From: Octopus vulgaris
Lineage: Eukaryota
DNA length: 64,000 bases
Assembly (NCBI GenBank): GCA_951406725.2
Contig: OX597815.1
Location: forward strand, 124,496,001 to 124,560,000
Direction of reading: 5' to 3'
Each line of letters begins with the position of its first letter. Position 1 is the first letter of the stretch. The notes under the pieces are model-generated. The model was not told the DNA's origin and searched no databases. It saw only the letters and a list, made by a program, of their open reading frames with translations. Shown here piece after piece: positions 6,021 through 38,368 of the stretch. Made by a program: the position numbers and the translations under genes.

Positions 6021-6449
6021 TATATATGTGTCTGTGTGTCTACACACACACACATACTTTTATTCTTTTTTCATGTTTCAGTCATTTGACTGCGGCAATG
6101 CTGGAGCACCGCCTTAATTTATTTATGCTATTATTTATCCCCTGAACCAATCTTTGGTCGAAACATATCTGAATTATCTAAAAGGAAGAACTATAAACAC
6201 CTACATTATATACATACACGCACATACGAATATTCATACTTTTTATACATGTATATATAATATATATATATATATATATATATATATATATACGTTTTAT
6301 GTAAATATATATATATAAGTTCAGCAAAATTTAGATTCAAATGAATATGGTACTTAAGGTAGATGCACCAGAATTTTGAATGGTGTTATCCATATAAATC
6401 CATGGGGTGATTATAATCAAAATAAGCAACAAGAATAACTTTGGTAATT

Positions 6450-6533
6450 TGGTACGATCGTTTCGCACTACATCATTTTATTAAATGTTGCAAGCATTAC
6501 AACAATTTTAAAATACTGAGCACTCATCAGCCA
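6450..6533 (-). ncRNA. Type I hammerhead ribozyme (family 1, minus copy)
   Basis: Reverse complement of 6714-6797. Confidence 0.65.
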
Positions 6534-6713
6534 TTTATAGAGGTTTTCCATTAATACATAATTTTCATATCAAGTGATAAACCTTACATAAGAGGTAGAT
6601 ATATAGACAAAGATGTCTAAAATTTAAATCCACATCTTTGTCTATATATCTACCTTCTATGTAAGGTTATCACTTGATATGAAAATTATGTATTAATGGA
6701 AAACCTCTATAAA

Positions 6714-6797
6714 TGGCTGATGAGTGCTCAGTATTTTAAAATTGTTGTAATGCTTACAACATTTAATAAAATGATGTAGTGCGAAACGATCGTACCA
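6714..6797 (+). ncRNA. Type I hammerhead ribozyme with long stem II (family 1)
   Basis: TGG-CTGATGA-[59-nt hairpin GTGCT...AGTGC]-GAA-ACGATCGT-A-CCA; palindromic stem III, GUA site, 3-bp stem I. Confidence 0.65.
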
Positions 6798-7479
6798 AAT
6801 TACCAAAGTTATTCTTGTTGCTTATTTTGAGTATATATATATATATATATATATATATATAGAGAGAGAGAGAGAGAGAGAGAAACAGAGAGAGAGAGAA
6901 ACAGAGAGAGAGAGAGAAACAGAGAGAGAGAGAAACAGAGAGAGAGAGAGAGAGAGAGATAAATATATGCACACGCGCATACATAAATGCACACAGACAT
7001 ATATACACGTACATAGACATTACACATCTATCTACCTATAATGGATGTATGTGCATGTATGTGTATGTGTGCGTGTGAGCGCATATAGTTAATCGACACC
7101 GGTGCCATGGTGACTTGTTACTGGAAAGTTCAAGGCACGTAAGAATTCCACTAGACAAATTAGCCTGACGAAAAGACACTCCGTATCTTTTGAGACGGAA
7201 GAAATTGCTGCAAGTACGCGTATAAATACCTTTTACTCCGAATACTTCCACAATCAGGGTGACGAGGGGTGTCCATTTGTCCAGTTTTAAAAGCGGCTGC
7301 ACACGCTGGAAATTCCAGTGTAACAGGCCCCTTGAGCAGCCTAAATAAACTACTGCACTCTACGTTTATATGATACCGTATGTACACACACACACACACA
7401 CACACACACACACACACACACACACACACACACACACACACACAAACACAAACACAAACACACACGATGGACTCTCCCC

Positions 7480-7760
7480 GTCGTTAGACCACGTATGAGG
7501 GTTCGACAATTTCTTACTGAACAACTACACAGATGATTCGTTTGTAGCGATCAAATATTTGTCTAGACATATGCTCACTCCATCCATCAGATCGACATTA
7601 CCTGAGCAGGTGCAACGGTTGCCATATGACAGATGTCTAAATGATTGCAGAGCGACGTTAAAATGAAATGCTTTGCTCAAGAACACAACGCAACGCCCGT
7701 CTGGGAATCGAATCTACGATCTCGCAATCGTGAGTGCGACACCTCAACCACTAAACCATA
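7480..7760 (-). mobile_element. Decayed tRNA-derived SINE related to family C
   Basis: TTGCTCAAGAACACAACGCA...GGGAATCGAA...AACCACT is the reverse complement of the head at 38727-38820. Confidence 0.6.
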
Positions 7761-34160: not shown

Positions 34161-37100
34161 TATTTGAAGACAATGTTGCTGGACTTGAACTTAAAATAGA
34201 AATCAATATTTTGGAGTAGTAGTAGTAGCATTAGTAGAGGTTGTAATAGTAGTGGTAATGGTGGTGGTGGTGATTGTGGCAGTAGTTGTAGTAGTAGTGT
34301 TAATGGTGGTGGTGGTGGTGGTGGAGTAGTAGTAGTAGTAGTAGCAGTAGTAGTTTCAACAGAGGTGTTTACTGTAGTGACAGAGAATTTAAATGTGATA
34401 GTAGGGATGACAAAACATGAGGAGCTAGGAAGAGAAGGCACAGACAAAAGGAGGTGAGCTAACCTAATTTATGTTTACTTCCAGCAATTCTAGGAGCCAT
34501 AAATACCATCTATAACCAATTGAGGCTCCATGTAGCTTGAGTCAAAACCAATCGAAACACAATCGTTATACTCACACAAACGCACAAACACATACACATA
34601 TATAAATTTATATACATACATATTGTTTCCTATTAAGTAGGAAAGTGACAGTCAGCGCCTTTGAATCATTTTTTAAATATACTTTCAGGGCTACCGAGAC
34701 TTCTGGGAAGGAGAGAATAAATTATTTTTTAAATGGGAGACTATCCAAATACTTGAAACAGACTGTACTCCCACTTAAGTCACCCAAGGGCAGATAGTGT
34801 TTGGCATTAAACTGAGCAACGGAATAGGTCTACCACCTAAGAAGTCACAATACTGAGAGCCGAAACAAATTATTCGAAGTATATATTCCAGCGCTTTTAC
34901 AATTCCGATGTCTAAGACGAGTCTTTCAGTATATTGACTTCAAATCGATAAAAACGTTGCATTTCCATTCAGACCACTGAAACAAATGTCGCAAGAAAGT
35001 TTATTTTACGTATTCCGACTCTTTCAGTTAACGTGATTCACGTATAACAGGCATGCATGTATAAATACATACATATATATGTATGTGTATACATTTGTTT
35101 ATGTGTGTATGTATATGTATGCATCTATATTTGTGTGTGTGTGCACTCATGTATACATATATATGTATACATGAGTGCACACACACATAAACAAATGTAT
35201 ACACATACATACATATGTATGTATGTATGTATGTATGTATGTATGTATGTATGTATACATGCATGCCTATATATATATATATGCCTATATATATATATAT
35301 ATAAATTCATATGTATATACAGATAATTGTGCATACTTATACACATATATGCATGTATGTATAATTGTATAGTTATATATTTGTCCTCTATATCTAATCA
35401 ACAATCTTCAGCAAGCTTTACTTAGATATTGTTACATAAATTTTAATAGAAATTTGAAAACCGAGAAATGGAAAATAATTAGAAACGTGGACAACTGAAA
35501 TAAATAAATGAATAATAAATTTATCTTAGAGCAGAACAAAAGATAATAGACTCCCCCTACCACCACAAAAAATATGAAAAGTCACGAGGGGAAAATTATA
35601 TAAAAATATGTAAGTTGGCGTGTATTTATGTGCGCCTCTTTACATGTATGTTTATATATAATATAGGCATGAATGCGTTGTGTATGTTTAAGTCTCATGT
35701 TAGTAGAGAAGGACCAATGGTAATCTATCTGCGAACCCTCCCAAACTGATGATATGCGGCTAATGTCTAACTTGAACATCTGTAGATTCAATGCTTTTGG
35801 TTGAAAACCTTGAGCAGGATCAGTATTCCAAAAGACTGCACTTTTGAATATGAAGAATGGACGAAGTTCTTCGTGGGATTTTTCGTGAGACGAGTTTCAA
35901 TAAAGCGCAGGATGAAAGAGCTACAAGTGGTTTGTGTGTATCTGGCTGGATAGGGTATGCAGCTACTTGGTTCGCATTAGATGAGCGGATACTTTTGTAA
36001 GAGTGATAGGAAAGAGAGAGAGAGAGAGAGAGAGAGAGAGAGAGAGAGAAAGAGAGAAAGAGAGAGGAGAGAGGTGGTGAGAGAGACTGACAGAGTGAGT
36101 CAGGCAACAGAGAGAATGAGATAAATTACATAGATAGATAGATAGATAGATAGATGAGAGAGAGAGAAAGAGAGAGTGAGAAAGTGTGAGAGAGTGTGTG
36201 AACAAGAGAGAAAGAGAGTGGGAAAATAGTGTGCCTGATATTATTTGTAGTATGTTGGTGTATGCAGTCGATGACAATCAGTGAATGTCCTTCTTTTGAA
36301 TCTGACATTGCTGGAACTGTCATGTACAGGGATAGTCAATCTTTTGAAGGTGATCGTTTACAAACGTTTCCATGTTTGAGACGCTGCAAATGAGAGTAAT
36401 AAGTCGAGTTGACAGTGTCAGAGAGTTGGATACACTATGAGGTGTTTCTGAAGATTGCGATATATCCATTGTAGCGGGAAATAGAAAGATTGAAAAGTTT
36501 CTTGAAAGTATGGGTTAACTATAGTATTCACTGCTTGAATATTATATACGGGTCAGTTAGAACAGCTTATCTTCTTTGATTGGAGGAAACAATGAATGCG
36601 TGTTTGTTTTTGTTATATATATATATGTGTGTGTGTGTGTGTGTGTGTGTACAGGCGCGTGTTTGTATGTGCGTTTGTGTTTGTGTGTGTGTGTGACTAA
36701 CTAAACCATGAACTTCGAACAGTTATTTAAGAGTTAAGTAAACAAATTCACCATAAAATGTCTCAATAGTTTCTGTGCTTTTCTTACCAATAATACATAT
36801 TAGCATTAAATATCATCCACCCACTACAGACTATTATTGTGCGTACATACACAAGCAAATATATATTTTCGAAATGCAATGTAATCAGTTAAATGTGATT
36901 CAGAATATCAGACCATGATACATTTACTTTCCAATTTGTTTCAGATTGTAGTTTTAATGATAGACATGAAAAACACGCTATATTGTACAATAGAATACGG
37001 TGTATCTAATTTAATCCACACACAGTGTGTGTGTGTGTATGTATGTGTGTGTGCGTGTATGTGCGTGTGTGTGTGTGTGCGTGTGGGTGTGCGTGTGTGT

Positions 37101-37781
37101 GTGTGTGTGTGAGTATTTGTGTGTGTGTCTGTGTGTGAGTGTGAATTTGATTAAATACACGGGACAGTTGTGAGGAAATGTCTTTTAAATAATCTCTCTC
37201 TACTGGAATCTCATTATCAACTGAGCTTTCGCTTTTAAGAGTCAACGGGCACATGCTATATATATATATATATAGTCACTAACTTGAATAAACCGATTAG
37301 CATAAATAATGCATTCATAGAAGCTATTTCGATTAATAAATTACTGATGCGTTAAGTAGTATTTTGCTTTGTTTTGAATAAATTTAAGATTCTAACCAAG
37401 ATACGTGTGTAAATTAAACAAAAATATGAACACTGGCAACTGTAAACAACTGTCTTTTATACAACCTCTTCACCTAAATTATAAGAAGCTTAACGCGTCA
37501 GCAATTTAGAAAAGCAAAATGATTTACACGCAACAAAGCAATTGATTTCACGTAAAAATCACTAGTATGTATGCTCTGGATTAATGTGTATGTATATGTG
37601 TATATATATATATATATATATATATATATATATATATATATGATATATACATACACATATATATGTGAATATATGATATATACATATATGTATGTATATA
37701 TATATGTATATATATATATTAGTAGAAATATTAAAATTACTAAGTCTCTCTAAAAGAGAACAACGGCAGCGTTCCCGGAAA

Positions 37782-38014
37782 ATAATAGTTATCGCCATAC
37801 TAATATGGCATTCTAATAAAAATAAGAATAAAGCTGTCCGCTTATTAGCTCCATGAGGCCATCGCCTTAAGTTAGCTATTTGATACACAAACTGTATCCA
37901 TATAACCTTCGAACAAATAGCTAACTTAAGGCGATGGCCTCATGGAGCTAATAAGCGGACAGCTTTATTCTTATTTTTATAAGAATGCCATATTAGTATG
38001 GCGATAACTATTAT
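37782..38014. repeat. Near-perfect inverted repeat, 101-bp arms, 31-nt spacer
   Basis: 37782-37882 versus 37914-38014; (TA)n tracts nearby on both sides. Confidence 0.9.
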
Positions 38015-38325
38015 ATATATATATATATATATATACATATATGTGTGTATATATATATATATATATATATATATATATATATATATATATATATATATAT
38101 ATATATATATACATACATACATACATACATACATTGATACTGTGTGGACTAAGATCCACATTGACAGGCCACTAAGATCCCCCGTTGACAGGTGTTTATA
38201 AAGTGTTAAACACTTTCGGTATGTAAATTAGGGATTCCTTCGTAGAGTAACTGCCAGATTTGTTGAGTATATAAACATAAAGTTTGACTGCTTGTTCCTG
38301 TGGTGACTGTCAGAATGATGTAGAC

Positions 38326-38368
38326 GCCTCTGATGAGAACCCAATAAGTTTCGAAAATCGATTAAGGT
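38326..38368 (+). ncRNA. Type I hammerhead ribozyme (family 5)
   Basis: GCCT-CTGATGA-GAAC-CCAATAA-GTTTC-GAA-AATCGATT-A-AGGT; palindromic stem III, UUA site; TATATAAA about 55 nt upstream. Confidence 0.65.

Follow-up and report, generated by a model that had tools for sequence, protein, structure and literature searches.

Six families of hammerhead-bearing insertions in an Octopus vulgaris genome window: ends of coding Penelope-like elements beside closed non-coding units

In this work, 11 type I hammerhead ribozyme motifs were analysed in a 64,000-nt window (the whole stretch studied, G000:C2:124496001-124560000) of the 2.8-Gb Octopus vulgaris genome. The motifs form six families, labelled by position in the window as F1 (6450/6714), F2 (11058/20145/22622), F3 (12979/13336), F4 (18070), F5 (24998/25406), and F6 (38326). 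We consider, with a probability of about 0.85, that they represent six separate insertions of hammerhead-bearing RNA ends, likely written by the reverse transcriptase (RT)-endonucleases of Penelope-like elements (PLEs). Three of them (F1, F2, F4) are clipped 3' ends of coding PLEs, and three (F3, F5, F6) are closed non-coding units of 304-360 nt, which likely borrow those enzymes. F1, F2, and F4 are linked to RT/endonuclease frames, whereas F3, F5, and F6 wrap around onto themselves and occur in tandem arrays. The insertions end 3' at fixed points within (TA)n, only one arm bears a tail, and any inverted arm is 5'. The feature is real, and it represents mostly known PLE and retrozyme biology in new families. 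An initial annotation of the window had proposed a retrozyme-like system mobilised in trans. This fits F3, F5, and F6, but not the 5'-truncated ends of autonomous PLEs in F1, F2, and F4; the tie of type I hammerheads with palindromic helix III to both PLEs and retrozymes was upheld, but not as one non-coding system.

Hammerhead motifs in the window

All 11 cores of the initial annotation were located, and their assignment to type I was confirmed by the core CUGANGA/GAAA/UH (or its U3-A8 swap) together with helices I-III. The descriptor search that it had proposed was run on the window in a strict form (core, stems I and II of at least 3 bp each, palindromic stem III, UH) and was satisfied by 7 of the 11 sites, against a mean of 0.14 and a maximum of 2 matches in 100 block-wise dinucleotide shuffles. 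Six of these matches have the canonical core, and no match with this core occurred in the 100 shuffles. Each of the four remaining sites has one damaged or weak helix, namely stem III at 11098, stem II at 20185, stem I at 25411, and a stem II of only 2 bp at 18108. Stem III is self-complementary as had been quoted, except at 11058, which carries a C>T change. The F5 core is the U3-A8 variant and not CUGANGA, and stem II of F1 is 59 nt long. Rfam gave nothing at gathering score on the window and no hammerhead among 150 listed of 348 weak matches. No alignable flank is common to the six families, in line with the earlier description of unrelated flanks. Each family is a dispersed repeat with 1132-2292 first-look candidates, 40 of them scored, which are not copy numbers.

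F1 and F4 as ends of Hydra-clade elements

The following features were assigned to F1 and F4 (window coordinates).
6317..6830, unstranded: F1 insertion in (TA)n, with a ~95-nt tail and inverted minus arm (to 6616), a junction, and a forward arm (6618-6830), representing the 3' end of an old PLE of Hydra type
6450..6533, minus strand: F1 hammerhead, C3 at 6530, predicted cut after 6453; 59-nt stem II, 8-nt palindromic stem III
6714..6797, plus strand: F1 hammerhead, C3 at 6717, predicted cut after 6794
18037..18218, unstranded: very short F4 insertion from a young PLE of the Hydra clade; the 3' end carries a minus-strand hammerhead (18075-18112) and is accompanied by a 73-nt tail in the opposite orientation (18146-18218)

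Judging from their sequences, F1 and F4 are 5'-truncated ends of Hydra-clade PLEs. Copies of both families have a common 3' end and staggered 5' ends, and the longest F1 copies reach 1 kb upstream into an endonuclease frame with a CxCX5C linker. The F1 ribozyme end lay downstream on the same strand in 28 of 30 loci picked by this frame. One F1 locus has an RT 'YRDD' frame, and for F1 the RT was seen only from the YRDD region onward. A long and variable poly-Asn tract was observed between RT and endonuclease in the F1 Hydra open reading frame (ORF) (L217, L206, L227). The F4 protein search gave 150 scored matches at 95-100%, about 25 of them with open 727-aa RT-endonuclease frames (among L127-L156). 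Two of five fetched open-frame loci (L157 and L158) have the order ribozyme-tail-ORF-1-kb 3' untranslated region (3'UTR)-ribozyme, i.e., a full pseudo-long terminal repeat (pLTR), which was seen for F4 only and not for F1. Among the other fetched F4 loci, one has an inverted 5' tail and another (L162) is a 2.7-kb divergent pair at 99.6%. The F4 tail is the 5'UTR of the coding element.

The F4 ORF carries RWK, DKT, and CxCX5C, as well as CxxC/CxH flanking endonuclease E and N, and lacks CCHH; some copies have CNF in place of CNC. F1 likewise has the CxCX5C linker and a C-terminal endonuclease without CCHH. The RWK, DKT, and CxCX5C motifs are given as diagnostic for the Hydra clade in section 11 of Craig et al. 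(2021; PMC8557442), with which the CxxC/CxH motifs and the (TA)n target also agree, and the F4 ORF matches by eye the Hydra alignment blocks printed in the supplement of that paper. Pfam and PDB sequence searches with the F4 ORF assigned no family, so its label rests on the motifs, the published alignment, and the atlas neighbours of the protein, which carry GIY-YIG, HTH_animal, and RVT_1. Both families resemble the Hydra-clade PLEs as described in the available text of PMC8557442 in their C-terminal endonuclease without CCHH, (TA)n target, pLTR ribozyme, inverted 5'-truncated copy, and tail at one end. They differ in that a 1-kb 3'UTR makes the units longer than the <3 kb described there, and in tails of 60-100 nt instead of 30-40. 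The published Hydra-1_Obim has a ribozyme other than those of F1 and F4. In the supplement, the entry printed just before it has stems I and III nearly those of the F4 ribozyme, and five F1/F4 motifs were absent from its accessible part.

F2 as the end of a Penelope/Poseidon-type element

F2 is represented in the window by four arms, two of them with another element between them.
11014..11423, minus strand: F2 arm with endonuclease remnant (~11296-11415), tRNA-like head (~11167-11221), hammerhead, and 3' end
11059..11102, minus strand: F2 hammerhead with a C>T change in stem III
11424..11668, plus strand: second F2 arm, in which a frameshifted remnant of the RT (11424-11604) adjoins a fragment of the F2 3' end
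20093..20242, minus strand: F2 left arm, hammerhead C3 at 20185; (TTA)n/(AAT)n inversion centre near 20363
20456..22433, plus strand: 5'-truncated non-LTR retrotransposon (Pfam RVT_1), inside (AAT)n between the two F2 arms
22568..22746, plus strand: F2 right arm, hammerhead C3 at 22627, predicted cut after 22662; usual 3' end

The RT remnant at 11424-11604 is 86-92% identical to the RT of L195, L196, L198, and L200. When loci were picked by the F2 endonuclease, 29 of 30 continued into the F2 3'UTR and 19 of 30 into the F2 ribozyme. The F2 RT pieces score above the Pfam RVT_1 cut-off, and no Pfam family was matched by the endonuclease pieces. The frames have a DKG motif in the RT, a C-terminal endonuclease with two Cys and two His, and no linker zinc finger. 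We take this set (DKG, CCHH-type GIY-YIG endonuclease, no linker finger) to be that of Penelope/Poseidon-type PLEs, so F2 is classed as the end of such an element, with an endonuclease label that rests on motifs. F2 further resembles these PLEs in the absence of a (TA)n preference and in a minimal hammerhead ribozyme (min-HHR) with one unpaired base before stem II, and it differs from them in a 3'UTR that holds a tRNA-type A/B box and then (AAT)n. No intact F2 ORF was found in eight long loci of this old family, and none of the copies recovered is full-length. In a separate locus, L126 (G000:C2:2733000-2737000), eight F2-derived units of ~223 nt without the tRNA-like head stand in tandem, i.e., a PLE end closed on itself.

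The arms at 20145 and 22622 are most simply one inverted insertion that was later split in its (AAT)n by the non-LTR element at 20456-22433, which is presumably Dong/R4-like. A second, inverted copy of the 3' end of this element lies at 32343-32645 (97%).

These linkages bear on two statements of the initial annotation. The statement that none of the copies codes for protein was contradicted by the 11058 copy, which runs into an endonuclease remnant and adjoins an RT remnant, and by F1 and F4, which elsewhere are the ends of protein-coding PLEs. The described (TA)n or (TAA)n setting was borne out as (TA)n targets for F1, F4, and F5, but the (TAA)n of F2 is an internal part of its 3'UTR and not a target site.

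F3, F5, and F6 as closed non-coding units

12897..13604, unstranded: F3 insertion with two divergent arms, derived from a closed non-coding unit of 360 nt; the minus-strand hammerhead is at 12979-13024 and the plus-strand one at 13336-13381, and the tail terminates the plus arm
24831..25658, unstranded: F5 insertion in (TA)n with two divergent arms, derived from a closed unit of 355 nt; left arm to the usual end, right arm to the tail end
24997-25041, minus strand, and 25405-25449, plus strand: F5 U3-A8 hammerheads, the first intact, the second with stem I weakened
38135..38443, plus strand: single F6 copy from a family of closed 304-nt units; its hammerhead lies at 38326-38368, and stem I continues beyond an internal loop

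The unit's own tail lies directly upstream of the ribozyme in 5/19 loci of F3, 11/19 of F5, and 11/20 of F6, and in none of F1 (0/19) and F4 (0/20). An F5 array has ten cores spaced by 355-357 bp, and an F6 dimer has a spacing of 304 bp; the sole F3 tandem seen is interrupted by (TA)n. The initial annotation had held that attachment of every unit to full Penelope ORFs would reduce the motifs to ordinary pLTR fragments. Linkage to Penelope RT/GIY-YIG frames was found for three of the six families (F1, F2, F4), but no PLE frame adjoins F3, F5, or F6 in 90 loci (20 per family and 30 further F3 loci, whose tail query included (TA)n and was therefore biased to insertion ends). A Hydra-like frame lies 1.2 kb from one F6 copy and was rejected as a partner, there being no F6 end behind the frame. 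A search for a partner ORF via a divergent flank in sequencing contigs led to a sister unit of F5 and not to an ORF.

The sister family is a young 360-nt unit (L291-L320) with 93 exact pattern matches (reversed control, 0), and its neighbouring copies form nine tandem and nine divergent pairs. No PLE frame was found next to it in 30 loci. F5 and its sister are identical at 229 of 366 positions (63%) overall and at 34 of 40 in the ribozyme, where the U3-A8 core is kept. The sister stem III is a different but perfect 6-nt palindrome, and stem I shows a G-C to A-U exchange (covariation). This comparison is the best evidence of selection on the ribozyme and on the dimer contact. Moreover, unit length and helices persist although identity has fallen to 63%, which implies that the unit has long been replicating in this small form.

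In monomer folding, F5 is strongly self-paired (z -4.4), and F6 has a z of -2.1. Contigs with the F5 unit from four runs guessed to be RNA and four large runs that are probably DNA have the same depth profile and the same wrap-around joint, so these profiles carry no information on circles or cleavage. F5-like sequence (L125:2600-2950) occurs in sequencing runs of five organisms.

As ORF-less closed units of 304-360 nt, F3, F5, and F6 resemble the non-LTR retrozymes of metazoans, which are outlined in the consulted text of Cervera and de la Pena (2020; PMC7229834) as non-coding 170-400-nt units with a type I hammerhead, in tandem. The likeness to the retrozymes of that paper and of bioRxiv 10.64898/2026.07.22.740005, as far as their available text goes, includes a single type I hammerhead, the occurrence of monomers, dimers, and multimers, and a PLE-rich genome. 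Unlike the retrozymes covered there, the octopus units have PLE-type helix III palindromes, a U3-A8 core (F5), and the full PLE insertion footprint.

Inverted pairs and the insertion footprint

The inverted-pair frequency, which the initial annotation had proposed to measure, was determined in 117 loci (the window's own included, three duplicates dropped). A 5' inverted arm is present in 30 of them (F1 2/19, F2 14/20, F3 5/19, F4 2/20, F5 7/19, F6 0/20), and a 3' inverted arm, which would give a convergent pair, in 0/117. The close opposite-strand pairs of the F5 sister are likewise all divergent (9/9). The minus-left/plus-right order had been correctly described for all four paired families. 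In F1, F4, F5, and the sister, one arm runs to the usual end and the other to the tail end, 60-100 nt further, and both stop in (TA)n. The inverted 5'-truncated copy and the one-sided tail have both been described for PLEs (PMC8557442, in the part available), and the divergent pairs are this known 5'-inversion, the standard shape of a PLE insertion.

The arms of the window pairs are 90-99% complementary. The long double-stranded RNA hairpins that had been expected in read-through transcripts are thus predicted from the complementary arms if these are transcribed through, and as existing transcripts they are a prediction only. As for a ribozyme on both strands, transcription in either direction would produce the antisense arm first, and this arm is predicted to pair with all 10 core bases. 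Folded as read-through transcripts, the F1, F3, and F5 pairs give stems I and II a probability of 0.00 in both directions, so that such pairs are predicted to be inactive as ribozymes.

Another divergent two-arm repeat lies at 37716-38014. Its arms are 231 nt long (91%), and no hammerhead was seen in them; it ends in (TA)n and, as in the PLE footprint, is extended on one side only.

Proposed mechanism and alternative explanations

We hypothesize that the ribozyme, acting as a dimer via its palindromic helix III, would cut a tandem or read-through transcript into unit-length RNA. No monomer hairpin is predicted for stem III, and the predicted duplexes range from -1.7 to -13.3 kcal/mol. Lunse et al. 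reportedly found that PLE hammerheads cleave as dimers. The unit-length RNA would probably be circularised, because complementary DNA (cDNA) started at the fixed ends, which are downstream of the cut site, must pass across that site; uncut tandem RNA would also serve. The enzyme would then cut its (TA)n target and prime cDNA synthesis at two defined positions on the RNA, namely the usual end and the tail end, with one cDNA starting from each DNA end. The two cDNAs would stop early and join head to head, giving the divergent pair. The copies in the window are likely dead, several having helix mutations and the paired ones being predicted to be buried by their own antisense arm. For F3, F5, and F6, mobilisation by a PLE rests on the shared footprint, since their 90 loci yielded no autonomous partner.

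Conservation of the core was compared with that of the flanks, as the initial annotation had suggested, by counting cells that differ from the column majority, with CpG sites set aside and one copy taken per tandem array. Mismatches are 39/2109 in the core and 406/12363 in the flanks (pooled p 2e-4, which is optimistic, the copies being related). The expected difference thus holds for the pooled families but singly only for F1 and F6, as would be expected if copies decay neutrally after insertion.

Besides this optimistic p value, several points weigh against the proposed reading. Cleavage at the NUH site and RNA circles are predicted steps of it, and motifs of this kind show low in vitro activity even as dimers in the available text of PMC4209133. 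In the young F4 family, stem II has only 2 bp closed by A.A in 29/36 copies and is missing from the predicted fold, which is difficult to reconcile with efficient cleavage. In the window, the left arm of F3 does not reach the usual end. The absence of an autonomous partner for F3, F5, and F6 in the 90 loci is a further such point, and the genome samples are the 20-30 best-scoring matches per query and not random draws.

An alternative, which we regard as unlikely, is that all six families are simply pieces of the pLTR or 3' end of autonomous PLEs. The closed appearance of F3, F5, and F6 would then stem from amplified local pLTR duplication, and their coding parents would have been missed by sampling, as this covered no more than 20 loci per family and a further 30 F3 loci selected for insertion ends. 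This does hold for F1, F2, and F4, and the F2-derived 223-nt array at L126 is a PLE end able to close on itself. On the other hand, F3, F5, and F6 have their own tail upstream of the ribozyme, in contrast to F4, where an ORF follows the tail, and a PLE frame adjoins none of the 90 F3/F5/F6 loci and none of the 30 sister loci. The long replication as a small unit implied by the F5 sister also argues for units of their own.

The divergent pairs could also have arisen after insertion, by fold-back repair or by recombination of neighbouring copies, and not during reverse transcription. The junctions do contain microhomology and small extra inverted pieces (13087-13246), and the similarity of the 20145/22622 arms, at only 90%, does not exceed that between unrelated F2 copies. 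However, in F1, F4, F5, and the sister each of the two arms has its own fixed end point, with (TA)n behind it, where a fold-back copy would share one end point, and the 3' side was never inverted among the 117 loci. This origin is quite improbable.

Very improbable is the original proposal of a single, varied retrozyme system, wholly non-coding, in which inverted insertions would serve as ribozyme devices on both strands or as double-stranded RNA devices: three families are indeed closed non-coding units with arms that would form long hairpins, but F1, F2, and F4 are ends of coding elements, 87/117 loci have no inverted ribozyme arm, helices I and II vanish in the read-through folds, and the pair geometry is a by-product of PLE insertion described in the consulted parts of PMC8557442 and PMC4209133.

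A tRNA-like head in the F2 3'UTR

Between the F2 endonuclease stop and the ribozyme there is a 75-nt tRNA-like stretch with A and B boxes, followed by (AAT)n. By eye, the boxes agree with consensus and spacing, and they are found in 18/30 (A) and 15/30 (B) of the endonuclease-linked copies. Among other loci picked only for the head, 27/29 begin within -17..+7 of its first base and 2/29 run on towards the ORF, whereas in the F1 control only 2/18 stop within 17 nt (p 1e-8). The same pile-up is present in ribozyme-picked copies with canonical B boxes (15/19 within -17..+16), and the short form has a 3' end identical with that of the coding element. A pile-up at the 5' edge fits run-off of the RT from an RNA starting there, as an RNA polymerase III (Pol III) transcript would. 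This suggests a short interspersed element (SINE) that may be mobilised by Penelope.

Several results weigh against the SINE interpretation. ARAGORN gave tRNA-like matches to the head only at the 80% threshold and none at default, and the Rfam tRNA model gave no match. All copies of the head-picked sample carry one B-box change, which is a search bias (common words were skipped); at a linked site, both letters are present (21/9). Finally, a short palindrome at the start of the head may attract junctions there.

The bolder view would be that a Poseidon-type PLE with a Pol III promoter in its own 3'UTR spawns a 270-320-nt RNA, tRNA-headed and hammerhead-tailed, which is retroposed by the Penelope enzyme (a SINE born inside Penelope), while three unrelated retrozyme circles use the two-point priming of coding Hydra elements. 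We would give this combined view an even chance. The closest precedent for the short F2 form is the schistosome Sm-alpha/Sj-alpha SINE-like elements, which have a tRNA-related Pol III head before a hammerhead (PMC6765202, PMC2770079, in the portions consulted). Unlike in these, the F2 head lies inside the 3'UTR of a coding PLE, so that the source of the 3' end, which is also the likely mobiliser, can be seen directly. No description of a PLE-mobilised SINE was found in the literature covered, with most subscription papers and Repbase outside this coverage. If true, it would represent a new SINE-partner pairing.

Relation to known elements and significance

The min-HHRs of metazoan PLEs include opposite-strand pairs, palindromic helix III, a U3-A8 core, and many families per genome (Cervera and de la Pena, 2014; PMC4209133, main text as available). 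The window families resemble them in the type I fold, short helix I, palindromic helix III, and many unrelated families per genome, and also in being mostly solo copies of truncated PLEs with opposite-strand pairs 100-700 bp apart and a U3-A8 variant. They differ from the forms covered there in helix III palindromes of up to 8-10 nt, the 59-nt stem II of F1, and the lack of the G10.1-C11.1 pair in F4. No octopus entry is present in two of the three supplements of that paper, and the literature search gave nothing specific on octopus hammerhead ribozymes or on Penelope twin priming. The sequences of these families were not found in the literature and supplements covered; Repbase, Dfam, preprint supplements, one PMC4209133 supplement, and most subscription papers lie outside this coverage and may hold them. 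The headline of many unrelated hammerhead families with opposite-strand pairs and a dimer-type helix III was already described in 2014 and 2021, so the surprise is low.

On the other hand, the presence of coding PLE ends and closed non-coding units side by side with one insertion footprint supports the proposed mobilisation of animal retrozymes by PLEs. This was put forward in PMC7229834, as cited by Li, Clavereau and Pollet (2026; bioRxiv 10.64898/2026.07.22.740005), where it is argued, in the text available, from co-occurrence and pLTR similarity. If the two-point priming is true, one genome would hold a direct record of PLE enzymes copying small ribozyme circles. Furthermore, the young F4 Hydra family with open frames offers a candidate enzyme for studying the mechanism of PLE insertion.

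Other features of the window

A 420-bp imperfect palindrome (79%) was observed at 39240-39659. The minus-strand frame at 49547-50574 is frameshifted and is presumably a mariner-type transposase, and a similar remnant seems to lie near 9400-10300.

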